From contig CAYNRK010000001.1 of NCBI GenBank assembly GCA_964399675.1, positions 137,221 to 201,220 on the forward strand: 64,000 bases of DNA. The letters are read 5' to 3'. Position numbers and translations under genes: made by a program. The notes beneath the pieces are model-generated. The model was not told the DNA's origin and made no database searches. It saw nothing but the letters and a program-made list of their open reading frames with translations. Shown here one piece after another: positions 7,440-51,393 of the stretch. This DNA comes from an uncultured Gammaproteobacteria bacterium. Its GTDB lineage: Bacteria > Patescibacteriota > Patescibacteriia > UBA9934 > GWF2-40-263. Position 1 is the stretch's first letter; every line of letters begins with the position of its first letter.

Positions 7440-7493
7440 ACGCATCTTCGGGTGCGTTCTTTCAAATAGAAAGGATCGCCTTTTAGAAGACGA

Positions 7494-11849: not shown

Positions 11850-11977
11850 GTGTACTCCTAAGCCAAGTGGCACGTTCTTCTTATCAGAGATTGTTTTTGA
11901 AATCAATTTTTCAAACCAAACCAGCCGCTTTTACACGGCTGGTTTGTTGGTCCCAGATGGCCTGCCTGTCGGCAGGT

Positions 11978-17411: not shown

Positions 17412-17450
17412 TCCCCCCTTTTCAAGGGGGGATTAAGGGGGGTTAGCATA
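17412..17450 (+). repeat. PPF element copy, intergenic, between trxB and the high-GC lipoprotein gene.
   Basis: ttcccccctttTcaaggggggattaaggggggttagcataa is nearly identical to 45633-45675. Confidence 0.8.
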
Positions 17451-30263: not shown

Positions 30264-30296
30264 GTGAGGCGGCAGACAGCCCGTCTGCCGCCTCAC
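30264..30296 (-). terminator. Perfect 14-bp inverted repeat gtgaggcggcagac-agccc-gtctgccgcctcac. It is the terminator of the high-GC minus-strand operon and the left island boundary.
   Basis: 14-bp perfect stem overlapping the stop codon, followed on the minus strand by a U-rich tract. Confidence 0.6.
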
Positions 30297-31123: not shown

Positions 31124-33051
31124 CACTCCCCTTGGTAGATGACCGGACCCTCTTCAGCGTCGTCAGCGCCGTGGATTCGGAAGCTACCGGTTCGCAGGGT
31201 CATGGTGGATCCAACAAGATCGACATGACCATCCGTTTCCGCGTCCCCTGAGAAGAGGAAGAACGGAGTCAGACGCGTGCGCGCACCACGATCGAGCCGG
31301 ACGTTGCCATCACTGTCGCGGTAGGCCACGGTGTAGCGATGCGAAGCAATGATGTGCTGGGCCACAACCGGGTGGGGGAGTCTGGCTCGCACAGCAAGCT
31401 CTTTTTCCCATTTCATCTGATTCTGAGCCTGGCTGCCAAGCGAAAGGCTGCGTGCACCCCAGGACTTGTTGTCGCCGTCCCAGGCACCGAACTTGGTCAG
31501 CCAGAGATGTCGCTCGTCTCTCACTTGTGGGAGAACACGATCGAGCAGACGCGTCTCTGCCACACAGTTATGCAATGTGGTGAGCGCTGCGGGATCGCGG
31601 CTTTTGATCCAGTGCATCACGTTCGGGTGCCAGAGCGCGGCCATGAGAGCCTTGTTTTCCAGACAGTGCCAGAGCGGGTTCATCATGAAGGTATCTTGGC
31701 TGTCCCAGGCGACCAGTTGATCCAGTCCTCCTGTGTTGACGAAGTTGTCGAAGTAGCCGAAGCGGAAGACAACTGTGTTCGGACCGAGCGTTTGAGGGAA
31801 ACCCTCGTCGCTGCCGTGAACGAATTCGTCGAACCCGAGCGCTTTGAGACGCCCCAGGAAGTCGCTGTTCCATGTGGCCTTGGCTGCATCAGACATGTTG
31901 TCGTGTGGCCACCAGCCTTTCCGTGTCAGCTTTGAGGGGCCGCCGCGCTGGCGAACCGCATCGTGGATCTGTTGAAGGGGCGTGTCGAACCAGATCTCGG
32001 CATCAAGGCCGCGCTCGCGAAGAGCAGCAACGAAGACGGCCTGATCCCACACGTACTCAGCCCATTCGTTGGTGGCGAACACGATGAGTTTGCGACCATC
32101 CAGTAGACGGACGTAACCGTCCAGCATGGTTGTGTCCAGTCCGTAGCCGAGCTCCATGGCGTGCGACATACCCTGTCCGGCAGGGCAAGATTCGAACTCA
32201 GTGATGACCGGGCGGAGTACGCCAGTCACCGGGTCCTTGACCACTACGATGTCCGGTCGCATGAGCATGACCGGGCCGCCTTGCATGAGTGCGGGAATAC
32301 GATCCGGGCGGCCATGATTGAGGATGTGCTGGACGCCGGGATTGCTTTTGTGCAGCGCATGGATCGCCTTGAATGCGAGTGCAAGCGCTTGCCCAAGCTC
32401 TCCCAACTTGTCCAGGAAGTACGTGGGCAGGGTGAAGGGATCGATGAGCTGGCGCCAGGAGACGCCACTGAGCCCTTTGTACCCAATACCAGTCTTGTTC
32501 ATGCGAACGCGCGCGGCCTCGACCTTGTCGCCGGCCGGTTGATTGACTCGGCGGACATGGGGTCCAGCGGCTTCTGCTTCTTGCCAGCCGTCAACGAGCT
32601 CAGGCTCGATGAGCAGGGCATCAGCCAGGTTGAGGCCATGGCCTCCAACTGTGGGCATGTTCTGGATGTCTACCCAGCGGCGCTCGATCGGATGCTCCAG
32701 GGGGCGACCTCGCCTGCCTTTTGTGTCGGTTCGACTTCCTGTTGTCCAGTCAAAACCGAGCATTGCGAACTTCACCTTCAGCGCGTCCAGGATAGGTCCG
32801 TTCTTGGGCCAGGTATCTGACTGTGCTGGAATGGCTACTCCGTTGTCTGGTAGTGTGCTGCCGCTGAGCACCTTGTTGCGCCATTCCCTTGTGGAGCGCT
32901 TGACACCGGATCCTCTCTCAGGACCACTGAGACCATGCTTGCGTCGCATCTCAAGCACCCTTTCGGGCACCACGACCGTGCTCTGGCCTCGTCGGCGTCT
33001 GGTGTTCCAAGTTGCGCCAGTTGTCTGGGAGGTCCTCGTGACTGAGTGCAT
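31123..33051 (-). CDS. Large protein carrying a glutathionylspermidine-synthase-like (GSP_synth/YgiC-YjfC family) ATP-grasp amide-ligase domain in residues about 250-600. The first ~200 residues are Arg-rich and of unknown function.
   Basis: RPDIVVVKDPVTGVLRPVITEFES (compare YgiC [22 protein letters not shown]), ENKALMAALWHPNVMHW (compare [20 protein letters not shown]), and WLTKFGAWDGDNKSWGA (compare VVKPIFSREGANV). GGAGAAAG ribosome-binding site before ATG at 33051. About 62% GC. Confidence 0.55.
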   Translation of the reverse strand: MHSVTRTSQTTGATWNTRRRRGQSTVVVPERVLEMRRKHGLSGPERGSGVKRSTREWRNKVLSGSTLPDNGVAIPAQSDTWPKNGPILDALKVKFAMLGFDWTTGSRTDTKGRRGRPLEHPIERRWVDIQNMPTVGGHGLNLADALLIEPELVDGWQEAEAAGPHVRRVNQPAGDKVEAARVRMNKTGIGYKGLSGVSWRQLIDPFTLPTYFLDKLGELGQALALAFKAIHALHKSNPGVQHILNHGRPDRIPALMQGGPVMLMRPDIVVVKDPVTGVLRPVITEFESCPAGQGMSHAMELGYGLDTTMLDGYVRLLDGRKLIVFATNEWAEYVWDQAVFVAALRERGLDAEIWFDTPLQQIHDAVRQRGGPSKLTRKGWWPHDNMSDAAKATWNSDFLGRLKALGFDEFVHGSDEGFPQTLGPNTVVFRFGYFDNFVNTGGLDQLVAWDSQDTFMMNPLWHCLENKALMAALWHPNVMHWIKSRDPAALTTLHNCVAETRLLDRVLPQVRDERHLWLTKFGAWDGDNKSWGARSLSLGSQAQNQMKWEKELAVRARLPHPVVAQHIIASHRYTVAYRDSDGNVRLDRGARTRLTPFFLFSGDAETDGHVDLVGSTMTLRTGSFRIHGADDAEEGPVIYQGE

Positions 33052-34223: not shown

Positions 34224-34590
34224 AACACCTTCAATGGTTTACTTGAGAATTTTTGTTCATACTCTAATAGCATGGACAATTGTGTTGGTTGTGCAATTGT
34301 TGTTAATAGACGCATCTTCTTGGCTTTTTGTTTTAGGCCACTATATTGCTGCAGTAATTGTTTTTGGTTATTCATTTCGTCTCTTTTTCAAAACAGAAAA
34401 AAAACTTACCTCATATCATGTCACCCTTGTTGCATTGACGTTTTTTCTATTTGCAGAGGCGGTTTATTGGATTGGGTTTTATAATGGAGAACAGAATTAC
34501 TTGAATTTTGTTAATTGGATGTTGCCGGCATTTTTAATTGTCAGCACGATTTATATGGTTGGTTTTACAAAGCAAAAGAAATTATTTTAA
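34210..34590 (+). CDS. Small 4-TM membrane protein (paralog A).
   Basis: Shares HTLIAW...YLNFVNWMLPAFLIVSTIYMVGF with 37784-38137 (FLNYVDWIVPIFIAASSIYFIGI). Confidence 0.5.
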   Translation: MKDNKTPSMVYLRIFVHTLIAWTIVLVVQLLLIDASSWLFVLGHYIAAVIVFGYSFRLFFKTEKKLTSYHVTLVALTFFLFAEAVYWIGFYNGEQNYLNFVNWMLPAFLIVSTIYMVGFTKQKKLF

Positions 34591-34595
34591 GCGCT

Positions 34596-34970
34596 ATGGC
34601 CAAGCCAATATTTTTATTTGATGCAGACTGTGAGTTTTGTCAATATTGGAAAAATCGCTGGCAAAAAACTGTTGGAGAAAGTGTTGATTTTCAATCAATA
34701 CAAAGTGCAGCCGATCGCTTCCCTCAAATTTCAAAAAAAGATCTTGAAAACTCCTCGCAGTTTATTGATGAAAAAGGTATTGTTTATTCAGGAGCAAAAG
34801 GTGTGTTTGAGATGTTAGCTTGTTCTCCAAAAAAACAATGGCCAAAATGGTTGTATGATCGCATTGCGTTTTTTAGATTAGTTTCAGAATTTGTTTACAA
34901 GAAAATATCTTCATGCAAAATTTGTGCTACAAAATTTATGAAATTCTTTTTAAGAAAAAAACATTTATAA
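34596..34970 (+). CDS. DCC1-like thiol-disulfide oxidoreductase (DUF393).
   Basis: FLFDADCEFCQYW is the CxxC motif characteristic of the DCC family. Confidence 0.6.
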   Translation: MAKPIFLFDADCEFCQYWKNRWQKTVGESVDFQSIQSAADRFPQISKKDLENSSQFIDEKGIVYSGAKGVFEMLACSPKKQWPKWLYDRIAFFRLVSEFVYKKISSCKICATKFMKFFLRKKHL

Positions 34971-34976
34971 AAATAT

Positions 34977-35177
34977 ATGACTCAACAAAGCTATTTAAAA
35001 ATTTCCGGTTTCCTTTTTGTGATCGTGGCCATTGTGCATGGTGTACGTATCTTTAATAGTTGGCCAATGGTGTTTGGGCCATATCAGATTTCAATGTGGT
35101 TTTCTTGGGTTGCTGCAATCATAACCGGCATCCTGGGCTTGCATGCGCTTTGGTACGCAAGTCGGTATAAATATTAA
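34977..35177 (+). CDS. Small 2-TM membrane protein.
   Basis: Two hydrophobic helices. Compact 6-nt spacing after the previous gene. Confidence 0.4.
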   Translation: MTQQSYLKISGFLFVIVAIVHGVRIFNSWPMVFGPYQISMWFSWVAAIITGILGLHALWYASRYKY

Positions 35178-35295
35178 TGGCAGTTTTTTATAAGAGGCTG
35201 AAAAACAGTCTCTTTTTTGGTTTCATCCACAAAAAGGGTTAACTGAAATCAAAATTTATGGTAAACTTTTGCCCGTTTTTAATATAAGAAATTTT

Positions 35296-36693
35296 ATGTT
35301 TACTATTCTTCAAAAAGTTCGATCTCAGAAAAAGCTTTACATAATCTCACTCGCCTTTTTGCTCGCAATTGTTGCTTCTCAACTTTTTGCTTCAAGTGGT
35401 ACTGAGGGCCATGGTGCAAGCACAACAATCCTTTGGATCGCAGTCGTTCTCATTGCTGCCAAACTTGCAAGTCTGGTTGAGCGAATCGGCCAACCCGCTG
35501 TTTTAGGGGAGCTTGTTATGGGAGTGATTCTTGGAAATTTGTTTTTGTTAGGCATTGATTTGTTTGAACCACTTAAGCACGACAGCATTCTCAAATTTCT
35601 TTCTGAACTTGGTGTGATCATTTTGTTATTCCAGATTGGGCTTGAGTCAAACATTCAAGAAATGAAAAAAGTTGGTGTGCGAGCTCTTCTGGTTGCCATT
35701 ATTGGAGTAGTTGCTCCGTTTGTGCTTGGAACGTATATTGTTGGACCTTGGCTTATGCCAGGACTTGAAAGCACGGCTTATTTATTTTTAGGAGCAGCAC
35801 TTACTGCAACATCTGTTGGAATCACTGCACGTGTGTTTAAAGATCTTGGAAAGTTGCAGATTCCAGAAGCGCAAATCGTTCTTGGGGCAGCTGTGTTTGA
35901 TGATGTTTTTGGATTGATTATCTTGGCGGTTGTTAGCGCGATTGCAACTGTTGGAGCAGTTAGCTTTGGAATAGTCAGTTGGATTGTTGCAAAAGCAATT
36001 TTGTTTTTGGTTGGATCAATTGTTTTGGGTGCGCTTGGTGCACCAACTCTTGGAAAGTTTTTTTCAAAGGTTCACACAGGCGTTGGAATGAAGTTCACAC
36101 TTGCTGTGTCGTTTTGTCTTGTGTTTGCCTATGTGGCAGGATTGATCGGGTTAGCTCCAATTATTGGAGCGTTTGCAGCCGGGCTTGTTCTTGATCCAAT
36201 GCACTTCCGTTATTTTAAAGCACCAAAAATGGTTCGCGATGTTCGAAAGGTTGTCAATGAGCACGTTAAAGAACACGATGATGATAATCATTTGAAAAAG
36301 GAAATGAACAAGGCGATTGAACATCATTCACATCGTCATATTGAAGATTTGATTGAGCCGCTTGCATACTTCTTGGTTCCGATCTTTTTCATCCTAACCG
36401 GGACTGAAGTGTCACTTGCAACTTTTGGAAATGTAAGCATCCTTTGGGTTGCGCTTGCAATCACACTTGTTGCAATCATTGGAAAGTATGTTGCGGGTTG
36501 GGTTGCTGGTCCTGTAAATAAAGCAATTGTGGGAGTTGGTATGATTCCTCGTGGAGAAGTTGGACTTATTTTTGCAGCAATTGGAAAAGGTTTGGGAGTG
36601 CTTTCAGATGATTTGTTTTCAGTGATTGTTGTGATGGTGATTCTAACAACACTTCTTGCCCCACCAGTACTTGCAAGGCAACTCAAGAAGTAA
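35296..36693 (+). CDS. Cation:proton antiporter (CPA1/CPA2 Na+/H+ exchanger family).
   Basis: About 12 TM helices. The sequence contains GELVMGVILG, ELGVIILLFQIGLE and IPRGEVGLIF. Start could be 35269. Confidence 0.75.
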   Translation: MFTILQKVRSQKKLYIISLAFLLAIVASQLFASSGTEGHGASTTILWIAVVLIAAKLASLVERIGQPAVLGELVMGVILGNLFLLGIDLFEPLKHDSILKFLSELGVIILLFQIGLESNIQEMKKVGVRALLVAIIGVVAPFVLGTYIVGPWLMPGLESTAYLFLGAALTATSVGITARVFKDLGKLQIPEAQIVLGAAVFDDVFGLIILAVVSAIATVGAVSFGIVSWIVAKAILFLVGSIVLGALGAPTLGKFFSKVHTGVGMKFTLAVSFCLVFAYVAGLIGLAPIIGAFAAGLVLDPMHFRYFKAPKMVRDVRKVVNEHVKEHDDDNHLKKEMNKAIEHHSHRHIEDLIEPLAYFLVPIFFILTGTEVSLATFGNVSILWVALAITLVAIIGKYVAGWVAGPVNKAIVGVGMIPRGEVGLIFAAIGKGLGVLSDDLFSVIVVMVILTTLLAPPVLARQLKK

Positions 36694-36713
36694 AAACAAC
36701 CCCGATAGATTAT

Positions 36714-36929
36714 ATGGCAAAAAAGAGACCAAAGGTCAGTTACGATTCAGATGCAAAGATTCTTTCTATAAGAGTTTCGTCTAAAAAAAGTGTGGATTCA
36801 GATATTCATGGTAATGTTGTTGTTGATTATGGAAAAGACGGACAACTTGTGAACGTTGACATTATGGACATATCGCTCTCGGAGTTTAAACGAGAACCAG
36901 TTATTAGAAAAATAATCGCCACAGTATAA
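36714..36929 (+). CDS. DUF2283-family small protein.
   Basis: YDSDAKILSIRVS...GNVVVDYGKDGQLVNVDIMD pattern typical of DUF2283. Confidence 0.5.
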   Translation: MAKKRPKVSYDSDAKILSIRVSSKKSVDSDIHGNVVVDYGKDGQLVNVDIMDISLSEFKREPVIRKIIATV

Positions 36930-36950
36930 AAGTTTTTTAATAAAAAAATC

Positions 36951-36977
36951 AAAAAACCGGCCTTAGGTCGGTTTTTT
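36951..36977 (+). terminator. Terminator aaaaaaccggccttaggtcggtttttt.
   Basis: GC stem with A/T flanks. Confidence 0.5.
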
Positions 36978-37075
36978 AAATTGGATTTTTTTGATATAAT
37001 AATTTCTGTCCAAACACCGGCTTGGTTGCGCATAGCCAAGAAGGGCATTGAACAACGAGCGACAAGGAGGACACC

Positions 37076-37645
37076 ATGCGAGCACTCTTGCCTGACAGAG
37101 GGCGAGTCATCGGGTTCTGCGTCCTGATCAGCGCGATGCTGTTGCTGGCCGCAGTACCGGCAACCGCGGAGGTGAAGGCGACCGACCAGTCCCACGACGC
37201 GGACTCGGGGGTCATCTGCTTCCTGAACAACGACGCCAGCCAGGAGCTGACCTGCATCAACCGACGCGCAGAGTCGGACATGTGGGCGATCACCTGCGCG
37301 CTGCGGGACGGCGGCAAGTGCCTGAGCCGAGACAGCGAGCTCATCCTCGTGGACGGCAACCGCTTCATCATGCGAGACGGTCAGCTCATCCTCTGTGACG
37401 GCAACCGCTTCATCATGCGGGATGGGCAACCGCCGTTCATCATGAGGACACCAGCAACAGCTATGCTCCTGCTCAAGGAGATCGGGATGAACCACCCGGC
37501 GGTGGCGCTCCTGATCATGATGCGCGACGAGTTCATCATGCGCACGCCAACAACGCTCGCGCTCAAGAAGTGGCGCGGCGCAACCCAAGCGGTGTCCAAG
37601 GCCGAACTCACGGACGGGACCGCTCCGTTCTCGTTCTGCGTGTAG
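37076..37645 (+). CDS. Secreted/exported protein with tandem FIMRDGQ repeats, on a very high-GC (about 62%) island.
   Basis: Signal peptide MRALLPDRGRVIGFCVLISAMLLLAAVPATA. Repeat LIL(V/C)DGNRFIMRDGQ x2 plus FIMRTP x2. Confidence 0.45.
   Translation: MRALLPDRGRVIGFCVLISAMLLLAAVPATAEVKATDQSHDADSGVICFLNNDASQELTCINRRAESDMWAITCALRDGGKCLSRDSELILVDGNRFIMRDGQLILCDGNRFIMRDGQPPFIMRTPATAMLLLKEIGMNHPAVALLIMMRDEFIMRTPTTLALKKWRGATQAVSKAELTDGTAPFSFCV
37333..37422 (+). repeat. 45-bp perfect-ish tandem duplication (ctcatcctc[gt]tg[gt]gacggcaaccgcttcatcatgcg[ag]ga[ct]gg[tg]ca[ga]) x2.
   Basis: Directly visible at 37333-37377 and 37378-37422. Confidence 0.75.
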
Positions 37646-37783
37646 CGCGACCCCGGCGCAACGCACGAGACAACGGCTCCACACTCAAGGGTGTAGAAAA
37701 GCTGACTTCGGTCGGCTGCTCCTGCATCCTTTTTCATTTTCTTGTGTTTCCAAAGAGCTTTCTGTACATTGAATAGCACAACT

Positions 37784-41634: not shown

Positions 41635-43728
41635 ATGCCTAGATCATACTCACTTGATAAAATTCGCAACTTTGGAATTTTTGCGCACATTGATGCCGGA
41701 AAAACAACCGTGTCAGAGCGCATCCTGTTTTACACAGGAAAGAAACACAAAATTGGAGAGGTGCATGAGGGAGAAGCAACAATGGACTGGATGGAACAAG
41801 AGCAAGAGCGTGGGATCACTATCACATCTGCTGCAACCACAGCATTTTGGAAAGATCACCGTTTAAATCTTATTGATACTCCGGGTCACATTGATTTTAC
41901 TGTTGAGGTAAAACGTTCAATGCGAGTTCTTGATGGAGGTGTTGCTGTGTTTGATGGTGTTGCAGGTGTTGAACCACAGTCTGAAACCAACTGGCGATAT
42001 GCGGATGAATATAAAGTTCCAAGACTTGTTTTCATTAACAAACTGGATAGAACCGGAGCAGATTTTTACAAGGACCTAGATTCTGTTCACGACCGATTAA
42101 CAAAAAACGCACATCCGATTCAACTTCCTATTGGTGCTGAGGCAAATTTTTCAGGTGTGATTGATCTTATTAAAAATAAGGCTTTTATTTATAAAGATGA
42201 TCTTGGGCGTGAAATTGAAGAAACAGAAATTCCAGATGATATGAAAGCATTGGCAGAAGAGTGGCGAGGAAAACTTTTTGAAGCTGTTGCAGAAAACGAT
42301 GAAGCATTAATGAATAAATATCTTGGAGGCGAAGAGCTTGATATTAAAGAAGTGAAAGCTGTTATTAGAAAAGCAACAATTGCAAATGATTTTATTCCAG
42401 TGCTTTGTGGGACTGCTCTAAAAAATAAAGGAGTACAGCTTTTGCTTGACGCTGTTGTAGATTATTTGCCAAATCCATTGGAAGTACCACCTGTTCAAGG
42501 TATTGATCCGGATGATGAGGAAAAGGTACTTACACGAAAGGCAGATGACAATGAGCCTTTTGCTGCTCTTGCTTTTAAAATTGCTGCAGATCCGTTTGTT
42601 GGAAAGCTTGCATTTTTCCGCGTGTACTCAGGTATGGTCAAAGCTGGTTCTTATATTTTGAATTCATCAACAGGAAAAAAAGAACGTGTTGGACGCATTG
42701 TGCGCTTGCACGCAAATTCACGTGAAGAAGTGCCTGATGTGTTTGCCGGAGAAATTGCTGCAATGGTTGGACTTAAAGAAACATTTACCGGACACTCGCT
42801 TTGTGATCCGGATCATCCAATAATTCTTGAGGCCATTACATTTCCAGAGCCGGTTATCTCGATTGCGATTGAACCAAAAACAAAACCAGACCAAGAAAAA
42901 ATGGCTATTGCACTTCAAAAGCTTGCTGAAGAAGATCCAACTTTCCGTGTTCGAACAGACGAGGAAACAAATCAGGTTATTATTTCAGGAATGGGAGAGT
43001 TGCATTTGGATATTATTGTCGAACGTCTTAAGCGCGAGTTCAGTGTTGAATGTAATGTTGGAACACCGCAAGTTTCTTATCGAGAAACAATCAAGGGAGA
43101 TTCAGAAGGAGAAGGAAAGTATATTCGACAAACTGGTGGTCGCGGACAGTATGGTCATTGTCAGGTCAAAATTGAAAAGTTAGAACCAGGTTCTGGAATC
43201 GAATTTGAAGAAAAGATTAAGGGAGGCTCAGTTCCGCGCGAGTACTTTAATGCAATTGAAAAAGGGTACAGAGAAGCAACCGAACGTGGTGTTATTGCTG
43301 GGTATCCAATTCTGGATGTAAAAATGACTTTGCTTGATGGAAGTTATCACGAAGTTGACTCTTCAGAAGCTGCCTTTAAGATTGCCGGTTCTATGGCATT
43401 CCAGGATGCTGCAAAGAAAGCAGGTCTTGAGTTGCTTGAGCCAATGATGAAAGTTGAAGCTATAACACCGGAAGATTTTATGGGAACTGTTGTGGGAGAT
43501 TTAAATGCAAAGCGAGGACAGATTCAGGAAATGTCGGATCGGTCCGGGGCAAAGGCGATTTCAGCTTTTGTGCCGCTTGCAGAAATGTTTGGTTATGCAA
43601 CAACACTTAGATCGCTTACCCAAGGTAGAGCAAGTTATTCCATGGAATTTGATCATTACAGTGCAGTGCCATCAAATGTTGCAAAAGAAATTATTGAAAA
43701 ACGTGGAGGTGGTGGTTCGAAAAAATAA
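41635..43728 (+). CDS. fusA: Elongation factor G.
   Basis: [22 protein letters not shown] and domains II-V. Confidence 0.95.
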
Positions 43729-43740
43729 AAATTGAAAAAG

Positions 43741-43769
43741 AAAAATGAGGCCCAGGCCTCATTTTTTGT
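43741..43769. terminator. Bidirectional terminator aaaaatgaggcc-cag-gcctcattttttg.
   Basis: Perfect 9-bp stem with symmetric A and T runs. Confidence 0.7.
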
Positions 43770-44298
43770 ATGTCACAACATCACCCAAATCTTGTTCAGG
43801 TTCCCAATCCGGAAACTTAAAAGCATTAGAAATAATCCGCCCACCTTCTTTAAGTTCTTGCATTACCTTTTTTTCAATTCCTTTCATAGAGAAAGGAATT
43901 TGATACAAGAGAATCACATCAACATCAGATAAGTCAGCTTTCCAAAACGATTTCTTTTTGATTTCAATTTTATCCTCAAGTCCCAGTTTTTTTATGTGTC
44001 TTCTGGAAAGTCTTACAAGCCCTGGGTGAACTTCATATCCAACTGCTGATTTTGCTCCTGCCTTAATGGCAGCAACCAGCAACCGACCGTCTCCTGAGCC
44101 CAAGTCCACAACATGATCGGTCTCTTTTATTTTTGCAAGCTTGATCATCCTTTTTACTTTTGCAGGTTCTGTTGCAACATAAGGCGCTCCTCGATTAATG
44201 AGCGGGATCAACATGCCGCCAAACCAATAGAGCACTACTAAAGCCACTATTAAAATGACAAGCAAGAAAAAAAGAAGTAAAAATGTGATAGGATCCAT
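43759..44298 (-). CDS. Membrane-anchored class I SAM-dependent methyltransferase.
   Basis: N-terminal TM helix, then VVDLGSGDGRL SAM motif I. Confidence 0.6.
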   Translation of the reverse strand: MDPITFLLLFFLLVILIVALVVLYWFGGMLIPLINRGAPYVATEPAKVKRMIKLAKIKETDHVVDLGSGDGRLLVAAIKAGAKSAVGYEVHPGLVRLSRRHIKKLGLEDKIEIKKKSFWKADLSDVDVILLYQIPFSMKGIEKKVMQELKEGGRIISNAFKFPDWEPEQDLGDVVTYKK

Positions 44299-44303
44299 AA
44301 AGT

Positions 44304-45341
44304 ATGACTGTTTCAAAAAAGGTATTAGCTCAATATGAGATTGGAAAAGTGAAGTCAGTAAAGCCAGTTGAATCTGGTTTGGTTCATAATACGTTTGCAA
44401 TCAAAACATCTACCGGTGATTATATCATTCAAAAGCTTCATCCCATACTTTCTGATCAAGGAACAGCCAGAGATTTTTTGGCTGTGGCTGAACATCTTGA
44501 AAAGGAAGAATTTTTAGCACCCAAGTGTGTGCTTAGTAAAACAGGGAAAGTTTTAGCTCGTGAAGGAAAAGAGGTTTGGAGAATGCAAACAAAATTGTCA
44601 GGCAACACATACGACGTTATAAAGGATCTTTCAATGCTCAGAGAAGCTGGAAAAATTTATGCGCAGTTTCACAAGACAATGGACCACATGGATTATAAGT
44701 TTAAATCAAAATTGGTTTTGCACGAGACAGAGAAGATTTATAAGAAGTTTTTAAAAATTCTCCCCCTTTTCAAGGGGGAGTTAGAGGGGGTTAGTAATGA
44801 GGTTGAGTTTATAAAAAAAGAATTTCCAAAATATTTTTTGCCAAAAAGTTTGCCGCTTAGAGTAATTCATGGAGATCCAAAAGTATCGAATATTTTGTTT
44901 AAGAAGGTCCCCCCCCTTTTCAAGGGGGGGTTAGGGGGGGTTACCGCTGCTGCAATTATTGATTTGGATACTTGTAGTCGCAGTTCGATTCTGGTTGAGC
45001 TTGGCGATGCGTTTAGATCCTGGTGTGGTAATGAAGAAGATGATCCAAAGAACAGGTTTTGTCTTCGCAAGTTTCGTTCAGCTTGGTCTGGGTATAAAAA
45101 AGGCTCTGATGGGTTTTTAACAGCCAGAGAAAAAAGTTTGATTCCAAAGTGTATTGGTACAATCACACTTGAACTAGCTTGTAGATTTTTAACAGATTAT
45201 TTTGAAGATAGTTATTTTGGTTGGGACTCAAAGCGTTACAAATCCAGAAAAGAACATAACTTGGCGCGATGCCGCGGACAGATAAAAGAGTTTCAAGATT
45301 ATAAAAAAAAGCTTTCGAAAATAAGAAGAGTGGTCAATTGA
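44304..45341 (+). CDS. APH/choline-kinase-like phosphotransferase (protein-kinase-like fold), with two in-frame PPF-element insertions.
   Basis: Catalytic HGDPKVSNILF (HGDxxxxN) and IIDLDTC (DxD). Insertions LPLFKGELEGVS at 44757-44792 and PPLFKGGLGGVT at 44903-44945. Confidence 0.6.
   Translation: MTVSKKVLAQYEIGKVKSVKPVESGLVHNTFAIKTSTGDYIIQKLHPILSDQGTARDFLAVAEHLEKEEFLAPKCVLSKTGKVLAREGKEVWRMQTKLSGNTYDVIKDLSMLREAGKIYAQFHKTMDHMDYKFKSKLVLHETEKIYKKFLKILPLFKGELEGVSNEVEFIKKEFPKYFLPKSLPLRVIHGDPKVSNILFKKVPPLFKGGLGGVTAAAIIDLDTCSRSSILVELGDAFRSWCGNEEDDPKNRFCLRKFRSAWSGYKKGSDGFLTAREKSLIPKCIGTITLELACRFLTDYFEDSYFGWDSKRYKSRKEHNLARCRGQIKEFQDYKKKLSKIRRVVN
44757..44792 (+). repeat. PPF element copy (in-frame, phosphotransferase gene), first.
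   Basis: ctcccccttttcaagggggagttagagggggttagt. Confidence 0.8.
44903..44945 (+). repeat. PPF element copy (in-frame, phosphotransferase gene), second.
   Basis: gtcccccccctttTcaagggggggttagggggggttacc. Confidence 0.8.
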
Positions 45342-45374
45342 CATAAAGTTTCCATATGGAAACTTTATGTCAAT
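45337..45374. repeat. 38-bp perfect palindrome attgacataaagtttccat|atggaaactttatgtcaat overlapping the phosphotransferase stop codon.
   Basis: 19+19 perfect dyad symmetry with no mismatches. Confidence 0.8.
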
Positions 45375-45634
45375 GTGTTAGCAAAAACAAAACAACTCCC
45401 GATTGAGAGTCGTTTCTTGTCCACCGAAGCCTCTTGGCGAAGGTGGATACATCTGAATGTTGAGATTTCGTTTCAGGCTTGCAGTGTTACTTTATCCTGT
45501 TCATCAACCTCTTTCCTGTGCAGCTATAGTTCAGATGTCTTCTGTTTGGACTAATCCAGACAGGTATCACGTGATTGCACAAGAGGGAATACTACCATAT
45601 ATAGGCGATTTTGTCAACCCCAAAGAGTCATTTC

Positions 45635-45672
45635 CCCCCTTTTCAAGGGGGGATTAAGGGAGGTTAGCATAA
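45635..45672 (+). repeat. PPF element copy, intergenic, at the left edge of the 45.7-49.4 kb high-GC island.
   Basis: tccccccttttcaaggggggattaagggaggttagcataa. Confidence 0.8.
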
Positions 45673-45719
45673 AATAAAGCAAATTGAAAAGCCCGCCTTT
45701 TGAGCGGACTGAGTGGCTG

Positions 45720-47057
45720 TTAGGCCGGGAGTTCGTAGCGGACTACGTGGAAGGTATTGTCGACTACGAACCAGCTCATCACAGCATGACCATCGACCTC
45801 AGTGAGGCGATCGAAGTCTGAGTAGAGCGGGAAGGTGCCGACCCCAGAGATCGAGTAAGGAGGCATCCTGGACCAGGAGAAGATGTCCGAAGAACCGCCT
45901 GCCCACATGGTCAATCCATCGTGGAGCCGGCGATATATGGGAATGTGTCTGGTGGTAACCGCTGGAGTGACGAGCGACTCAACGCCGTCTTCTGAGAACC
46001 ACACGACAGGTCTGGCCTGGTTTCCATCGGCTTCGTGTCCGATGATCGCGACGCCATTGGGGAGCACAACAATGTCTTCAACGGACAAGATGCGTTTGTG
46101 AGGGAGTCGGCGATTGCTGGCTGAATGCTCGCGCAGGGTGAGCGTCTTCCCATCATCTGAATGTACCCAGAACGTCCTGCCATCTTTCGCGAAGATCTTG
46201 TCATTGCGACAGAATCCATTCCCACCCATCCCATTGGGGGTATGGGAGTTCAGGTAGTTGCCATCAGTTGTGCTGACATGCAACACACCGTCATCATCAA
46301 GGAACAGGCTGTTTGGGATGATCCGATCTTCGTTCCTGAGCTTGATCACCTGACGGCCAAACAGAACCTCTTTGTAGTCTGAACAGCGATGTACAATCGC
46401 AGGAGTGTTATCGCTTCTTGCGACCTTGAGAACGGTTCGTTCGTCCTTTGCCCAGAGAACATCTTCTTCAAAGACCAAGCGGCGGTGTTCCTCACTTTGG
46501 CAGAAGACCCGCACAAACTGTTGGCGATCGTCGGATCTGTCATTTCCTGGGTCAAAGGAAACTGCACACCACTTCGAGCACCCTGCTGTCCAGAAGGTTG
46601 GCGCTTCGATCGGGGTCAGATCCAGATCGAATTCCCAGTCGCCCCAACGAACACCGAAGTGCTCAGCTTCTGCATCTGTGTAAACGAACGCCAGTTTGTT
46701 GCTTCCCTCAGGGAAGTGCGGGTACAGAAGATTGTCTGTATTGTCGATCGGTTCAGAAAGACCCGAAGTAGCTGTCCAGGTTCGAACACCCCGCTTTTGA
46801 TCCCCCACGGCACTGCAGACAAGCGCGATCGTTCCGTCGTGTGCAATGCACACGCTGTCATGGATCACGTTGACTCCTGGCGGGAGTCGAAATGCGTGCG
46901 TTACGTGCGGAGGCAGGCCGATGGGCTTTCCAGCAAGAACTTTGACCGCCTGTTCAAGTCTACCTGGACTGACCTTGCCTGGATGAGCACCAAGGTATAC
47001 AAGGATTTGCGCAAGCGCTTTTTCTCTTCGTGTTGGTCCTACTACTGGACTTGCCAT
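45720..47057 (-). CDS. Hypothetical protein (445 aa), high GC (about 58%).
   Basis: Long ORF. No motif recognised. Confidence 0.5.
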   Translation of the reverse strand: MASPVVGPTRREKALAQILVYLGAHPGKVSPGRLEQAVKVLAGKPIGLPPHVTHAFRLPPGVNVIHDSVCIAHDGTIALVCSAVGDQKRGVRTWTATSGLSEPIDNTDNLLYPHFPEGSNKLAFVYTDAEAEHFGVRWGDWEFDLDLTPIEAPTFWTAGCSKWCAVSFDPGNDRSDDRQQFVRVFCQSEEHRRLVFEEDVLWAKDERTVLKVARSDNTPAIVHRCSDYKEVLFGRQVIKLRNEDRIIPNSLFLDDDGVLHVSTTDGNYLNSHTPNGMGGNGFCRNDKIFAKDGRTFWVHSDDGKTLTLREHSASNRRLPHKRILSVEDIVVLPNGVAIIGHEADGNQARPVVWFSEDGVESLVTPAVTTRHIPIYRRLHDGLTMWAGGSSDIFSWSRMPPYSISGVGTFPLYSDFDRLTEVDGHAVMSWFVVDNTFHVVRYELPA

Positions 47058-47202
47058 GATGAAAGGTCCTTTGCCCGGTCAAAAGACTTACATTTGCGCC
47101 GAAGTTTTCCCCGGACGCACTTGATTGCTTTTGCCGAACTTTAGTGATTGCCACGGGATTGTGACGAAGTTATCTCAACACAATCCATATTTTGAGTCAA
47201 TA

Positions 47203-47246
47203 AATTAAATTGAAAAGCCGTTCGTCACCAGGTGGTGTCGAACGGC
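47203..47246 (-). terminator. Terminator gccgttcgacaccacctggtgacgaacggc plus cttttcaattt (minus-strand sense), 3' of paralog 1.
   Basis: 8-bp GC stem with a nested cacc/ggtg stem. Duplicated at 48401-48444. Confidence 0.6.
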
Positions 47247-47278
47247 TCGTGAGTGGTTGTTGCCCTGAAAGGGCTTGT

Positions 47279-48217
47279 CTACGGCGTGGCCGCGGCCGGC
47301 TCGGGCTCGCTCGCGGTCGGGTCGCCGTTGGTCGGCTTGGCCTCGGCTTCGGGTTCCTCCGCGGTCTCGTCCGCTTCGGACTCCTTGATCTCGGGCGCCA
47401 GGTGCGCGTGCAGGTCCTCGATGCCGTAGGTGGGCGCGGCTGCGCTGAGCTCGGTGAACACGCTGCGCACGACCGTGTCGAAGATCTCGTCCTGCCGCCG
47501 CTCCCACAGCTCGTTGAGCCACTCCTGGAACTCGTGGAGCAGTGCATCGTAGTACGAGCCGGTTGGGTCGAAGCACGCGATCGGGATGTTGTGATCCTCG
47601 CGAGCCACCTGCTGGGCACGCTCGTGCTCGTGCTGGTATACCCCCATGTCTTTGTCGCTGGCGTTGGTCACCACCGTGAGCTGGTTTCGGTGGAGGCCGG
47701 TCAGCGCCTCTATCGCTCCCATCGGGCCGTTGTTGCCGACCGCGATCAGTTGCACGCCGTGTGCATCAAGGGCGCGGTCGTTGTTGAGACGATCGAAGAA
47801 GATCGCACGGATCAGCGGAACGAGCCGCTTGACCAGCGGTTCCTCCTTGCGCCAGCCGTACTCGAGCTCGCTGCTCAGTTCCTCGCGCAGATCCACGAGC
47901 GTGCTGCGCAGGGTCTCGGTCAGGAGCTCCCTGGTCGCGGCCGCGTGCTTCTTCCTGGGCGAGCGTACGAACACCATGCCGGCGTCCACGCTGTGATGCA
48001 GCTCGTAGAGGCCGCTACAGAGCGGACCGTCGTGATCCACGACTGCGGTTTCAGCCAACACCTGGATCCTGCCCGTGGTGGCTGAGTTGAACATGGGTGT
48101 GGTGTTGCACACCACGACCACGCCGGTGTCGGCATCAATCTCCACGCAGATCCGTACTGCCGCGGTGATCGGGTCTGCTGCCACGTCCCTCAGTGACTGT
48201 GTGCTAACGTCTGACAT
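47279..48217 (-). CDS. Hypothetical protein, paralog 1 (312 aa). Acidic Pro/Glu-rich C-terminal tail. High GC (about 63%).
   Basis: About 35% identity to 48475-49401 over the N-terminal 230 aa. The last ~75 aa are nearly identical (FDTVVRSVFTELSAAAPTYGIEDLHAHLAPEIKESEADETAEEPEAEAKPTNGDP). Confidence 0.5.
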   Translation of the reverse strand: MSDVSTQSLRDVAADPITAAVRICVEIDADTGVVVVCNTTPMFNSATTGRIQVLAETAVVDHDGPLCSGLYELHHSVDAGMVFVRSPRKKHAAATRELLTETLRSTLVDLREELSSELEYGWRKEEPLVKRLVPLIRAIFFDRLNNDRALDAHGVQLIAVGNNGPMGAIEALTGLHRNQLTVVTNASDKDMGVYQHEHERAQQVAREDHNIPIACFDPTGSYYDALLHEFQEWLNELWERRQDEIFDTVVRSVFTELSAAAPTYGIEDLHAHLAPEIKESEADETAEEPEAEAKPTNGDPTASEPEPAAATP

Positions 48218-48400
48218 CTTAGCCCCTATGTTTCAGTATTGGCGAGAGACCATCCAGGTTTGCCAGGTTCCTGGAATAGAAACGGACATAGTTGTCCGCA
48301 ACGAACAGAATATAGCAGAGATTTGGGCGGATGTCAATGGTTGAACTGAGCATATTTAACTAAAGAATTGAGAGATTTTGAGAGTAATTACTTAAATTGA

Positions 48401-48444
48401 AAAGCCGTTCGTCACCAGGGTGGTGTCGAACGGCTCGTGTGTTG
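48401..48444 (-). terminator. Duplicate of the 47203-47246 terminator, 3' of paralog 2.
   Basis: Same hairpin, with one extra G. Confidence 0.6.
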
Positions 48445-48474
48445 TCGTTGCCCTGAAAGGGCTTATAGCTCAGG

Positions 48475-49401
48475 CTAGCCCGGCGAAGCGGCGGTCTCGG
48501 CCTCGGGCTCGCTCGCGGCTGGGTCGCCGTTGGTCGGCTTGGCCTCGGCTTCGGGTTCCTCCGCGGTCTCGTCCGCTTCGGACTCCTTGATCTCGGGCGC
48601 CAGGTGCGCGTGCAGGTCCTCGATGCCGTAGGTGGGCGCGGCTGCGCTGAGCTCAGTGAACACGCTGCGCACGACCGTGTCGAACAGGGTCGGAGCGTGC
48701 TCGACCCAGAGCTCGTTCAGGTAGTTCTGGAACTCGCGGAGCAGCGCGTCGAAGTACGTACCGGTCGGGTCGAAGCAGTGCACTGCGATGTTGTTGTTCT
48801 CGACCACCTCGCTCGCACGTCGCTTCTGTGCCTCGCGTGCCTGGCTGCTTCCGCATTCGCAGCCGGGAGGGCAGCCGCCCTCGAGCATCGCCATGATGCC
48901 TTCGGGGCGACCCTGACCCACGGCCACGAGCTCGATCGCGTTCCTGTTGAACGGCCGCCCTTCCTTGATGCGGTCGAAGATCACGCGTCGCAGCTGGCCG
49001 GGCAGCCACTCGAGCAGCCGTTCTTCGCTGACCCACCAGTCGGTGAGCTCTTGGGCGAGCTCGGCGTGCAGACCGGGCAGCAGGCTGATGACCAGTCCGG
49101 TCAGCATCTCTCTGGTGCTGGCCGCGTGCGTCTTCCTGGGTCCCTGGATGAACACGATGCCACCCTCGATGCTGTACCGCATCGTGTAGTCGCCGCTGCA
49201 GAGCGGAGCCTCGTGCTGTCCGGCCTCTCGTGTGAGCTTGTCCGTGATCTTGTCCGCGGTCGACCACGCCATTGCTGGCTCGGTGGCCACAACCACGACC
49301 TCGCGTCCTTCGGCCCTGACCCTGAAGGTCAGCTGCACGCAAGCGTGGATCGGTTCGTCAGCGACCTCTCTGGGGCTGGGGAAGCTGATGTCTATCGACA
49401 T
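48475..49401 (-). CDS. Hypothetical protein, paralog 2 (308 aa).
   Basis: See paralog 1. It contains a Cys cluster GGCPPGCECGSS that is absent from paralog 1. Confidence 0.5.
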   Translation of the reverse strand: MSIDISFPSPREVADEPIHACVQLTFRVRAEGREVVVVATEPAMAWSTADKITDKLTREAGQHEAPLCSGDYTMRYSIEGGIVFIQGPRKTHAASTREMLTGLVISLLPGLHAELAQELTDWWVSEERLLEWLPGQLRRVIFDRIKEGRPFNRNAIELVAVGQGRPEGIMAMLEGGCPPGCECGSSQAREAQKRRASEVVENNNIAVHCFDPTGTYFDALLREFQNYLNELWVEHAPTLFDTVVRSVFTELSAAAPTYGIEDLHAHLAPEIKESEADETAEEPEAEAKPTNGDPAASEPEAETAASPG

Positions 49402-49547
49402 GGTGTCTTTGCCTTTTCATCTTGTATTGGCAGGTTGGTCTAGGCTTGCCAATAACCTAGACAAGAAGCAGACGAACATGTCCGCAACGCACGAATGCTA
49501 CAGCAAAACACATAAATTGTCAAGGGTTTCTGGAATAAAAAATTTGC

Positions 49548-49575
49548 TTGACAGTCCAATAAAATAAGCTAAAAT
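49548..49575 (+). promoter_or_regulatory. Sigma70 consensus-like promoter TTGACA-16-TAAAAT, 10 nt upstream of the 49585 ATG.
   Basis: ttgaca at 49548 and taaaat at 49570. Confidence 0.6.
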
Positions 49576-49584
49576 GCTCGCACT

Positions 49585-50037
49585 ATGAACAATCAATTTC
49601 AAAGAATTCTAAATCTTGTAAAAAAGACCGGCGATAGGCTTGTTGTAACTGATCAAGACGGTGAAAATACCTATGTGGTCATGGATATTGATGACTACGA
49701 AATGCTTGTTGATTCAGAAAACATGCCTCTTTTTGATGAGGACGATTATGAAGACTTTGATCTTCATGATGAAGTTGAGCCAGAAGAAGGCCAAACAAAA
49801 GAAATATCTGAGCCTCAAGACATCTGGAATGTTATGCAGTCTGCAGAAGATGGGGGAGAAACATGGGATCCATCAACTCTCTCAGAGGAAGAACTTTCAG
49901 ATTTGGAAGAGCAATATCAAAAATTTGCCGCTCGAAACATAGAACAAGCAATTGAAGAAGTGGTCCCTGAAGCTCCTAAAGTTGAGGAAAAACCAGACAT
50001 TGCAGAAGAGGAATTTTACCTTGAGCCAATTGAGTAA
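49585..50037 (+). CDS. Highly acidic hypothetical protein (150 aa, pI about 3.5).
   Basis: Strong promoter. N-terminal 40 aa mixed, then D/E-rich. Confidence 0.45.
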   Translation: MNNQFQRILNLVKKTGDRLVVTDQDGENTYVVMDIDDYEMLVDSENMPLFDEDDYEDFDLHDEVEPEEGQTKEISEPQDIWNVMQSAEDGGETWDPSTLSEEELSDLEEQYQKFAARNIEQAIEEVVPEAPKVEEKPDIAEEEFYLEPIE

Positions 50038-50113
50038 TTTGGCTAACTTTAGCTACCTGATACTTGCTACCTGATACTTGCTACTTGTTGTGAACAACCT
50101 GTGCCCCAGACAC

Positions 50114-50142
50114 TTGCGCGTTTTATGGCATTTTGCTATACT
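50114..50142 (+). promoter_or_regulatory. Promoter-like TTGCGC-17-TATACT upstream of tuf.
   Basis: Hexamers at 50114-50119 and 50137-50142. Confidence 0.45.
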
Positions 50143-50199
50143 TTCGCACGTCTCTAAATAAACAAATATTTACTAAGATAAGTTAATTTTATAAAGAAT

Positions 50200-51393
50200 A
50201 TGGCTGAAGTCTTTGACCGAACAAAGCCACACGTTAATGTGGGAACCATTGGTCACGTTGATCATGGAAAAACAACATTAACGGCAGCTATTTTGGTTGC
50301 GTTAAAAGAAAAAGGTTTGAGTGCCCAAACAAAGGGTGTTGATGACCTTGATAAAGCCCCTGAGTCAAAAGCTCGTGGAATTACTATTGCCACAGCTCAC
50401 TGTGAGTACGAGTCTGCAAATCGTCACTATGCTCACGTTGACTGTCCAGGACACGCTGACTACATTAAAAACATGATTACCGGTGCCGCTCAGATGGACG
50501 GTGCGATTTTGGTTGTAAATGCTGCAGATGGCCCAATGCCACAAACTCGAGAGCACATCTTGCTTGCAAAACAAGTTGGTGTACCGGCAATGGTTGTCTT
50601 TCTTAATAAAACAGATCAAGTGGATGATCCAGAGCTTATTGATCTTGTTGAAGAGGAAGTTCGAGATCTTTTGAAAAAATATGAATTTCCTGGAGATGAG
50701 GTTCCAGTAATTCGTGGATCTGCTTTGAAAGCTCTTGAGAACCCAACAGATGAAGAGGCAGTAAAACCAATTCTAGAGCTTGTTGAAAAACTTGATACAT
50801 ATATTCCAGAGCCGGTTCGTGAAACAGACAAGCCATACCTCATGCCTATTGAAGATGTGTTTTCAATTGAAGGTCGTGGAACTGTTGTTACAGGTCGAAT
50901 CGAGCGTGGAATCGTCAAGGTGGGAGAAGAAATTGAAATCGTTGGGATCAAAGAAAAAGCAAAGAAAACAACAGTGACAGGAGTTGAAATGTTTAACAAG
51001 TCACTTGAAGAAGGGCGTGCTGGAGACAATGCTGGAATCTTGCTTCGTGGTATTAAGAAAGAAGAGGTTGAGCGCGGAATGGTTTTGGCTGCACCTGGAT
51101 CCATTACTCCACACACAGAAATCGAGGCAGAAGTATATGCTTTGACAAAGGAAGAAGGTGGTCGTCATAAACCATTCTTCAAAGGCTACAAGCCGCAGTT
51201 TTATATCCGAACCACAGATGTAACAGGTGATGTGACTCTTCCGGAAGGAACTGAAATGGTCATGCCGGGAGATACGGTCAATTTAACGATCAAGCTCATT
51301 CATCCGGTTGCTCTTGAAGAAAAGATGTCTTTTGCTATCCGAGAAGGTGGGCGAACTGTTGGGGCAGGAATCGTAACTAAAATTATCAATTAA
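50200..51393 (+). CDS. tuf: Elongation factor Tu.
   Basis: [22 protein letters not shown]. Full length. Confidence 0.95.

Follow-up and report, generated by a model that had tools for sequence, protein, structure and literature searches.

The interval between the elongation factor genes fusA and tuf was analysed in a 64-kb stretch of DNA, the whole of which is referred to as the window. It had a GC content of ~40% and came from an uncultured Uhrbacteria-like bacterium of the candidate phyla radiation (CPR). The interval probably has two layers, namely an inherited architecture and a variable cargo slot, with a GC-rich island lying in the slot. In the first layer, which was revealed by synteny, a gene for a small Phd/YefM-like acidic protein is fixed between fusA and tuf in a CPR clade, and tuf is preceded by a conserved promoter of its own. 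In the closest subclade, fusA is also followed by a methyltransferase gene (minus strand), a gene for a kinase-like protein of the APH family and a candidate small RNA (sRNA) of ~200 nt (minus strand). In the second layer, the few tens of bases between the divergent promoters of the sRNA and the acidic gene are replaced by content that differs from genome to genome.

An earlier reading of the same DNA (the original prediction) had described a str operon split by approximately 6.5 kb of accessory DNA and had proposed a local integration hotspot. The split was found as described, and so were several features named with it, i.e., a bidirectional terminator after fusA, a membrane methyltransferase, a 38-bp perfect palindrome, an acidic protein with a consensus promoter and a promoter-like motif ahead of tuf. 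The hotspot was recovered as a variable slot containing the island, whereas the rest of the gap was inherited. Judging from the compared loci, the hotspot is real but narrower than proposed, being confined to the spacer that separates the promoters of the sRNA and the acidic gene.

Separation of fusA and tuf in the Window and in Related Genomes

fusA (EF-G, 697 aa; 41635-43728, plus strand) matched the Pfam families GTP_EFTU, EFG_III, EFG_IV and EFG_C with E values down to 8e-63, and tuf (EF-Tu, 397 aa; 50200-51393, plus strand) matched the Pfam EF-Tu domain set with an E value of 1e-62. According to the open reading frame (ORF) map and Pfam, rpsL, rpsG, fusA and tuf retained their order on one strand, and rpsJ and the S10 operon came after tuf. 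The adjacency of fusA and tuf by which a str operon is recognized was absent, as the end of fusA at 43728 and the start of tuf at 50200 were 6471 bp apart. For comparison, 52 species-representative loci with both genes were considered. In the 49 loci without the acidic gene, the median gap was 120 bp and the largest was 255 bp; one of these 49 was from another Patescibacteria genome, with a gap of ~96 bp. The separation of fusA and tuf is real, and it is rare across bacteria in general.

The predicted signals argued against co-transcription of fusA and tuf. The terminator scan identified a hairpin, AAAAATGAGGCCTGGGCCTCATTTTT, at 43741-43766, whose 11-pair stem was bordered by an A-run and, at the opposite end, by a T-run. 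Since both runs flank the hairpin, it could terminate transcription in both directions (fusA on the plus strand and the methyltransferase gene on the minus strand). Four convergent or divergent units followed between fusA and tuf, and a conserved promoter preceded tuf. The latter, TTGCGC-17-TGcTATACT followed by the conserved block TTCGCACGTCT, was located at 50114-50142 (plus strand). In an alignment of the spacer between the acidic gene and tuf, the promoter consensus CTTGCR-17-TGnTATACT together with TTCGCACGTCT was conserved in 9/9 genomes. On account of this conservation, the predicted independent transcription of tuf is regarded as an inherited, old feature of the clade.

The same separation was found in relatives. 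In L001, a Candidatus Uhrbacteria genome that was the closest species representative (EF-G 83% identical to that of the window), the order was fusA, methyltransferase (minus strand), APH, sRNA (minus strand), acidic gene and tuf. The whole gap of L001 amounted to 2.4 kb, the high-GC island was absent, and the spacer from APH to the acidic gene was 240 bp. A metagenome search with an alignment of the acidic protein retrieved 70 loci, 24 of which also held fusA and tuf. The acidic gene was directly upstream of tuf in 27/27 related loci with both genes (the 24 metagenome loci, L001, L002 and L016), and the fusA-tuf gap in related loci with the acidic gene ranged from 615 to 8493 bp. In L148, L141, L144 and L130, fusA and the acidic gene were separated by just 18-110 bp with no other gene between them, and this arrangement of fusA, acidic gene and tuf looks like the simplest state of the locus. 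The EF-G proteins of the CPR clade sharing the acidic-gene arrangement, which includes Uhrbacteria, were 64-85% identical to that of the window. Moreover, the methyltransferase, APH and sRNA candidate were also syntenic in the closest relatives, and the GC content at third codon positions (GC3) of the methyltransferase, APH and acidic genes was host-like at 0.29-0.33. By this evidence, ~2.5 kb of the 6.5-kb gap is vertically inherited, and the split is a lineage trait because L001 and the metagenome relatives share the synteny and the tuf promoter is conserved. The original prediction had named a shared separation of fusA and tuf in related genomes as the observation that would count against a recent insertion. 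Relatives do separate the two genes, and that objection applies to part of the gap.

Cargo Slot Between the sRNA and the Acidic Gene

The content of the slot was measured from APH, or from the sRNA, up to the acidic gene. The slot was empty in L001, L098, L091, L094 and L096, where the sRNA directly abutted the acidic gene and the promoters of the two stood back to back. Only ~47 nt separated the ATG of the acidic gene from the -35 element of the sRNA promoter in L001, and the island occupied the corresponding interval in the window. The filled slots differed in size and content. L089 contained 6.2 kb with PGA_cap/Memo, two lumazine synthases and an Asn-synthase-like gene, with the sRNA inside the stretch. 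L104 (3.2 kb) and L109 (3.1 kb) contained a class-III aminotransferase and orphans, and L111 (3.0 kb) contained a gene similar to gene I of the window and a 316-aa orphan. L116 contained ~9 kb with a NUDIX protein, an aminotransferase as in L104 and L109, the 316-aa family and orphans. In the window, genes I, J and K filled 3.9 kb of the 4.2-kb interval between APH and the acidic gene. Hence, at least six different cargo sets and five empty sites were present between conserved flanks, which is the pattern of a hotspot. Some cargo families recurred at the locus, i.e., the I family (window and L111), the J/K family (window and L087), the 316-aa family (L111 and L116) and the aminotransferase (L104, L109 and L116). 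The GC3 of the cargo was higher than that of the tuf gene of the same genome in 5/5 other genomes checked, clearly in four of them and marginally in L104.

Where the methyltransferase and APH genes were missing, the equivalent position contained 2-5 kb of other genes (L016, L126, L131, L142 and L153). In L016, the interval between fusA and the acidic gene (3084-3940) included small GC-rich units that had TTGACA promoters and terminators of their own; one was an 82-aa ORF and another a 33-aa peptide, MKDFTEKIALINDNYDNFDGITACIDGAGSINA. Integrase and transposase Pfam domains were found neither in the gap nor in the cargo of five other genomes. No tRNA was found near the island, and neither flanking direct repeats nor att-type repeats were detected. 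The hallmarks of a classical genomic island or integrative element were thus absent.

Genes I, J and K of the Island

The GC content was 0.51-0.67 at 45500-49500, compared with ~0.40 in the flanks. The original prediction had given the high-GC island a length of 3.7 kb. The island was present, and its bounds were set at ~45618-49547 (~3.9 kb), between the divergent promoters of the sRNA and the acidic gene. It was the sole genome-specific part of the gap. Three genes were encoded, all of them on the minus strand. Gene I (445 aa; GC 0.54, GC3 0.58) had its coding sequence at 45720-47057, a terminator at 45710-45690 and a weak promoter. The gene J cassette (47216-48337) comprised a coding sequence of 312 aa at 47279-48217 (GC3 0.85), a terminator at 47247-47216 and the promoter TTGACA-17-TATATT at 48337-48309, which had 11/12 matches to the consensus. 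The gene K cassette (48403-49523) comprised a coding sequence of 308 aa at 48475-49401 (GC3 0.86), a terminator at 48435-48403 and the promoter TTGACA-17-TAGCAT at 49523-49495 with 10/12 matches. J and K each had a 5' untranslated region of their own with similar hairpins, and the terminator tails of I, J and K all read GGCTTTTCAATTT. The GC3 values of 0.58, 0.85 and 0.86 for I, J and K compared with a median of 0.335 (interquartile range 0.30-0.39) for the 62 long ORFs of the window. The minus strand was the coding strand: GC peaked at codon position 3 on it, the terminators were on it, J and K aligned in frame, and the K protein encoded by it was modelled with confidence by AlphaFold.

Gene I was encoded on 15 contigs, which originated from samples in JGI, ENA, Logan and NCBI. 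Four long contigs (JGI and ENA) were at least 99.96% identical to the window including the right junction, and L081 spanned both junctions. Two short contigs (ENA and Logan) reached no further than its left edge. The island is genuine and not a product of assembly, and I, J and K are coding genes.

J and K represented a tandem duplication of a ~1.19-kb cassette, and their proteins, aligned in frame, were 49% identical. The 3' end of J (47300-47482) was 98% identical to that of K (48502-48684) over 183 nt of coding region. At three clustered single-nucleotide polymorphisms (47380, 47386 and 47389), J of the window matched K, and three JGI assemblies kept a different version of J. These positions directly attest to continuing gene conversion between the two paralogs, in which J of the window was converted to the K version. 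A diversity-generating retroelement was considered in view of the 3' repeat shared by J and K. This candidate was rejected, as no reverse transcriptase domain was found in the ORFs of the gap and the J variants differed by T/C, A/G and A/G (coding strand), each matching K, which is the pattern of gene conversion.

The three proteins had few relatives. None of them had a credible match in Pfam, PHROG, NCBIfam or PADLOC, where J had two matches at chance level (E 0.008 and 0.04), and comparison with the PDB by sequence gave no match for I, J or K. Gene I matched only itself among 5.8e9 proteins; two word-indexed searches and one profile search of these proteins returned self matches and P0004 only. 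A full HMMER scan of 1.84e9 representatives likewise identified P0004 as the sole distant relative of J and K (E 6.8e-8). The gene for P0004 was on L087, where it preceded the acidic gene and tuf in divergent orientation, and was followed by a second, partial paralog, so two tandem copies were present there. The sole homolog of gene I (505 aa, 30% identity over the full length) was on L111, as the immediate upstream neighbour of the acidic gene and likewise divergent. The GC3 values of P0004 and the L111 homolog were 0.68 and 0.84, compared with 0.47 and 0.52 for tuf of the respective genomes. Collections of phages, plasmids and viral contigs contained no relative of gene I; for J and K, viral contigs were the only collection checked, and none was found there either. 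The confident AlphaFold model of K (pLDDT 73.8, pTM 0.70) showed an alpha/beta protein with a disordered acidic tail, and it had no fold match in the PDB or BFVD. I, J and K are predicted to be soluble orphan proteins of strongly foreign composition.

Origin of the Island

The cargo would most likely have been gained and lost through recombination among related CPR genomes, or it would derive from a GC-rich pool of genes not yet sampled. The conserved flanks would have provided the homology arms, i.e., fusA on one side and the acidic gene with tuf on the other, or the sRNA, which is the mechanism assumed for integrase-free chromosomal hotspots between core genes. As the flanks are very conserved, homologous replacement would be the most economical mechanism, and a site-specific mobile element is less likely than recombination through flanking homology. 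Several points weigh against an inherited architecture with imported cargo. The I and J/K families had no homolog outside the locus among the 5.8e9 word-indexed proteins (nor, for J/K, among the 1.84e9 representatives scanned with HMMER) and no donor was found, so composition alone speaks for transfer from a GC-rich source. The intergenic spacers of the island were AT-rich and carried promoters and terminators in the style of the host, which would not be predicted by simple transfer of a GC-rich block. Both families occurred at the same locus in genomes whose EF-Tu proteins were only 85-87% identical, which also fits ancient residence with differential loss. Furthermore, the genome set contained one close species-level relative (L001), the polarity of gain and loss was based on parsimony and composition, and the promoter, terminator and sRNA calls were all computational.

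The AT-rich spacers and the restriction of both orphan families to this slot bear on the alternative that the island genes were old residents, already carried by an ancestor shared by the window, L087 and L111 genomes, lost in L001-type genomes and fast-evolving. Selection or GC-biased gene conversion between tandem paralogs, for instance, would then have maintained their high GC content in situ. The I and J/K families were known from three genomes and from no other locus, conversion between the paralogs J and K was directly visible, and L087 also had tandem paralogs. The host-like composition and signals of the island spacers would be expected as well. However, a GC3 of 0.85 next to a tuf gene with 0.31 is very far from equilibrium for an old resident, and gene I was GC-enriched despite being a single copy. 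The conversion tract covered only ~183 nt and the terminator, whereas the whole coding sequences were GC-rich. Moreover, 12 of the 62 long ORFs of the window were GC-enriched, pointing to general import. This alternative is accordingly considered rather unlikely.

The island could also be the cargo of a site-specific mobile element, such as an integron-like array, a phage remnant or a segment mobilised by a miniature inverted-repeat transposable element. The three units were laid out like cassettes, their terminator tails shared GGCTTTTCAATTT, and a copy of a dispersed 33-nt element was located exactly at the left junction. This explanation is nevertheless very improbable. Genes for integrases, transposases or phage functions were detected neither in the gap nor in the cargo of five other genomes, the island showed neither an attC-type core nor flanking direct repeats, and the families were restricted to one slot. 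The collections of phages, plasmids and viral contigs (viral contigs only for J/K) gave no match. The cassettes carried their own promoters, unlike integron cassettes, and TTTTCAATTT was common throughout the window with 10 copies compared with 1.4 expected. An integron array in particular was rejected, as neither IntI nor attC was found, J and K had near-consensus promoters, and the sequences downstream of the genes were plain terminator hairpins. The terminator tail AAATTGAAAAGCC was likewise set aside as a recombination site because TTTTCAATTT was generally enriched in the window.

That the whole 6.5 kb is recently integrated accessory DNA which broke an intact str operon is scarcely tenable. 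The gap was unusually large in comparison with other bacteria, and repeats and a palindrome were present in it. Against this, the methyltransferase, APH, sRNA and acidic gene were syntenic in L001 and in many metagenome loci, and the acidic gene and the tuf promoter were conserved across a clade in which EF-G identity falls to ~64-70%. The inherited genes of the gap also had host-like GC3 values (0.29-0.33). Finally, an assembly chimera, contamination or a non-coding stretch, suggested by the abrupt change of composition and by long antisense ORFs that one pipeline called as genes (L084), can practically be dismissed, since four independent long contigs from different projects shared the right junction and L081 spanned both junctions, the spacers were AT-rich and host-like, Rfam had no match in the island, and the coding evidence for J, K and I included homologs in genomes of different GC content.

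Inherited Protein-Coding Genes of the Gap

The methyltransferase gene was located at 43759-44298 on the minus strand and encoded 179 aa from the ATG at 44298, with the ORF remaining open to 44400. The protein was assigned to the membrane-anchored class-I S-adenosylmethionine (SAM)-dependent methyltransferases, as the Pfam families PrmA (32.8 bits, cutoff 22) and Methyltransf_31 (31.9 bits, cutoff 27) were matched above their cutoffs and one N-terminal transmembrane segment was predicted (KD19 3.49). An NCBIfam equivalog for protein-lysine N-methyltransferase was matched with an E value of 1.6e-25 and 89.8 bits, below its cutoff of 200; a protein-lysine substrate class may thus be taken as a lead only. 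Syntenic orthologs were found in L001, L089, L098, L100, L104, L109 and L111.

The APH-family kinase-like protein (345 aa; 44304-45341, plus strand) belonged to PF01636 with 57.5 bits against a cutoff of 23.2 (E 2.2e-15), contained HGDPKVSN and IDLD in agreement with the catalytic motifs HxDxxxxN and DxD of the family, and was 57% identical to the L001 ortholog. The start codons of the methyltransferase and APH genes were divergent and 5 nt apart (44298-44304), and the same arrangement was observed in L001. The promoter of each gene would therefore be inside the coding region of the other.

The acidic protein had 150 aa, an isoelectric point of 4.05 and 47 D+E residues compared with 9 K+R residues (coding sequence 49585-50037, plus strand). 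Its promoter, TTGACA-16-TAAAAT at 49548-49575 (plus strand), agreed with the consensus at 11/12 positions. The -10 element ended 9 nt ahead of the ATG, and no Shine-Dalgarno sequence was seen in 49570-49587; the transcript thus probably has almost no leader. Over its first ~45 residues, the protein resembled the N-terminal domain of Phd/YefM proteins, with scores below the gathering cutoffs (25.0 vs. 29.8 bits for PF02604 and 15.6 vs. 20.8 for TIGR01552). The C-terminal half was a long acidic tail ending in the conserved EEFYLEP(V/I)E. No cognate toxin gene was found beside the acidic gene, and the downstream gene was tuf in every locus that was long enough.

Candidate Structured sRNA

The sRNA unit occupied 45385-45617 on the minus strand, with a predicted transcript from ~45582 to 45385 and a conserved core at 45451-45538. 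The promoter scan placed TTGACA-17-TAGTAT with an upstream TG at 45617-45589, and the terminator scan placed a 12-pair hairpin at 45416-45389 (both on the minus strand). Both signals were conserved in relatives. In comparison with L001, the block had insertions or deletions of 1, 2 and 4 nt, indicating that the region is non-coding. The fold was more stable than that of shuffled controls, with z-scores of -3.6 in the window and -4.5 in L001. Searches with nhmmer and a covariance model identified the sRNA in 17 related loci, with one copy in each and always on the strand opposite to the acidic gene (e.g., L001 13686-13894, L089 7532-7728, L098 9739-9910 and L111 7081-7260, all on the minus strand).

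Four helices were distinguished in the core. In a plain MAFFT alignment, 79.7% of the cells were paired, compared with 71.1 +/- 1.5% after shuffling and 26-41% with slid partners. The model-fitted alignment agreed, and for the two alignments together the values were 79%, 70-71% and 25-42%. Changes on both sides were observed in 15 of 20-22 pairs. The long-range helix occurred in different genomes as ACAUCUGAA/UUCAGAUGU, GGUCUGAA/UUCAGACC, CUAGAU/AUCUAG, GUUUGAGAC/GUCUCAAAC, GUCGAAAG/CUUUCGAU and GCGUAG/CUACGC. In a permutation of this helix with windows set by sequence anchors only, cognate partners were superior to swapped partners in 20000/20000 cases (0/20000 contrary). The 5' pairing P1, UCUUGUG:CACAGGA, was conserved without compensatory change and would form a pseudoknot with the long-range helix.

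No Rfam 15 match with E<=1 was obtained for the window region and seven related loci. Signal recognition particle RNA, 6S RNA, tmRNA and RNase P RNA did not fit by eye, and a box C/D-like kink-turn (UGAUGA ... CUGA) gave no clean fit. A literature search on Uhrbacteria, CPR, the str operon and structured RNA revealed nothing relevant. The compensatory changes, the predicted promoter and terminator of its own and the absence of a coding signal are those of a structured non-coding RNA, and the sRNA is proposed as a new candidate family, free-standing, previously undescribed and supported by covariation.

Repeats in the Gap

The perfect palindrome of 38 bp (19+19 nt, 100% complementary) was located at 45337-45374, where it overlapped the stop codon of APH and lay between the convergent APH and sRNA units. 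It was a single copy in the window and was found only in this strain. The tandem 14-bp repeat, GCTACCTGATACTT, which had been predicted as 2.5 units at 50050-50090, was measured as 2.4 units with 100% matches at 50052-50084. In the alignment of the acidic-tuf spacers of nine genomes, it was not conserved in relatives.

A dispersed element of 33-38 nt (core CCCCTTTTCAAGGGG) occurred three times in the gap, all on the plus strand. The original prediction had described the APH gene as carrying two repeat insertions. Two copies were indeed present, and the second (44908-44945) was a clean in-frame insertion of 11 codons in comparison with the L001 ortholog, whereas the first (44758-44795) replaced a variable loop without net insertion. 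The third copy was at the left edge of the island (45631-45668). The element consisted of the hairpin CCCCCCTTTTCAAGGGGGG followed by a G-rich tail and had 6 copies in 64 kb, compared with 0.01 expected (2037-2051 on the minus strand; 17415-17429, 21053-21067, 44763-44777, 44913-44927 and 45636-45650 on the plus strand). Four copies were sense-oriented inside ORFs, involving three different ORFs and translation in all three frames, with the products PPFSRGEKRG, PPFQGGTKGG, PLFKGELEG and PPLFKGGLGG. Among the 157 loci examined, the element was absent from all 151 loci of other genomes and was confined to this species. Three other assemblies ended at the repeat inside APH, as expected of a dispersed repeat. 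In addition, a run of seven G residues in the second APH copy (44924-44930) was six G residues long in the JGI assembly L081, with a frameshift that resulted in ORFs of 209 and 125 aa; this difference is either phase variation or a homopolymer error.

Composition of the Window and Implications

Together with I, J and K, 12 of the 62 long ORFs of the window were GC-enriched. The further ones were located at 7-909, 1601-2272, 4687-8132, 10446-11906, 30293-33051 and 36827-37684, with GC3 values of 0.51-0.68 compared with the median of 0.335, and most of them were without a Pfam domain. Import of GC-rich genes seems to be genome-wide and not special to the fusA-tuf slot. The region 34590-37727, with an Na/H exchanger, a DUF2283 protein and a GC-rich ORF, had no counterpart in L001. 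ARAGORN identified a tRNA-Ala with the anticodon AGC, which is unusual for a bacterium, at 11978-12054 (minus strand), adjoining the GC-enriched ORF at 10446-11906. Nine of the ten copies of TTTTCAATTT were on the minus strand. The sites 45681-45690, 47207-47216 and 48394-48403 were the terminator tails of I, J and K, and the site at 43729-43738 came directly after the hairpin shared by fusA and the methyltransferase gene, on its downstream side.

The textbook str operon is permanently interrupted in this CPR clade, and tuf is predicted to form a transcription unit by itself. Annotation that relies on operons is affected there, and so is any use of fusA-tuf adjacency to check assemblies and bins. 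New elements of the locus are a conserved structured sRNA candidate with no counterpart in Rfam, a Phd-like acidic protein tied to tuf and two families of orphan proteins known only from the slot. Roughly one in five long ORFs of the window was GC-enriched, and the source of these genes, if found, may point to the partners or viruses of the episymbiont; alternatively, a biased process that builds GC-rich genes in place could be demonstrated. A further reading would take the gap not as accessory DNA but as a CPR-specific module for the control of translation elongation with a slot that records host association. The module would consist of the acidic protein fixed beside tuf and, back to back with it, a new and possibly pseudoknotted class of sRNA; a kinase-methyltransferase pair may belong to it and modify EF-Tu, EF-G or ribosomal proteins. 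The slot may repeatedly capture GC-rich orphans (I and J/K, with a predicted new fold) from GC-rich partners of the episymbionts or from viruses. With all of these parts taken together, this reading is decidedly unlikely; if it were true, the slot would be a readable record of host association.

Comparison With Known Systems

The canonical str operon, as in E. coli, has the order rpsL-rpsG-fusA-tufA. The window resembled it in that rpsL, rpsG, fusA, tuf, rpsJ and the S10 operon were kept in this order on the same strand. It differed in the fusA-tuf distance (6471 bp compared with a median of 120 bp), the predicted terminator after fusA, the conserved promoter of tuf itself and the lineage-specific acidic Phd-like gene that is now a fixed neighbour of tuf. 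The acidic protein was similar to Phd/YefM type II antitoxins (PF02604) in its N-terminal part, whereas its score was below the cutoff, a toxin gene was not adjacent, and the window protein had a long acidic tail.

Rickettsia palindromic elements are short repeats that insert in frame into genes. The 33-38-nt element of the window was similar in that copies with CCCCCCTTTTCAAGGGGGG were translated inside ORFs. However, it was much shorter and, among the loci examined, confined to this species. Integron cassette arrays shared with the island the tandem single-gene units, the foreign composition and the orphan proteins. By contrast, the island was without IntI and attC, J and K had their own promoters, and an intrinsic terminator followed all three genes. 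Integrase-free chromosomal hotspots of gain and loss between conserved core genes are a concept reportedly put forward by Oliveira et al. in 2017. The slot agreed with such hotspots in its conserved flanks, its variable cargo of atypical composition and its lack of a recombinase. It differed from them in its position inside a highly conserved translation operon, between back-to-back promoters, and in its orphan families, which were found only in this slot.

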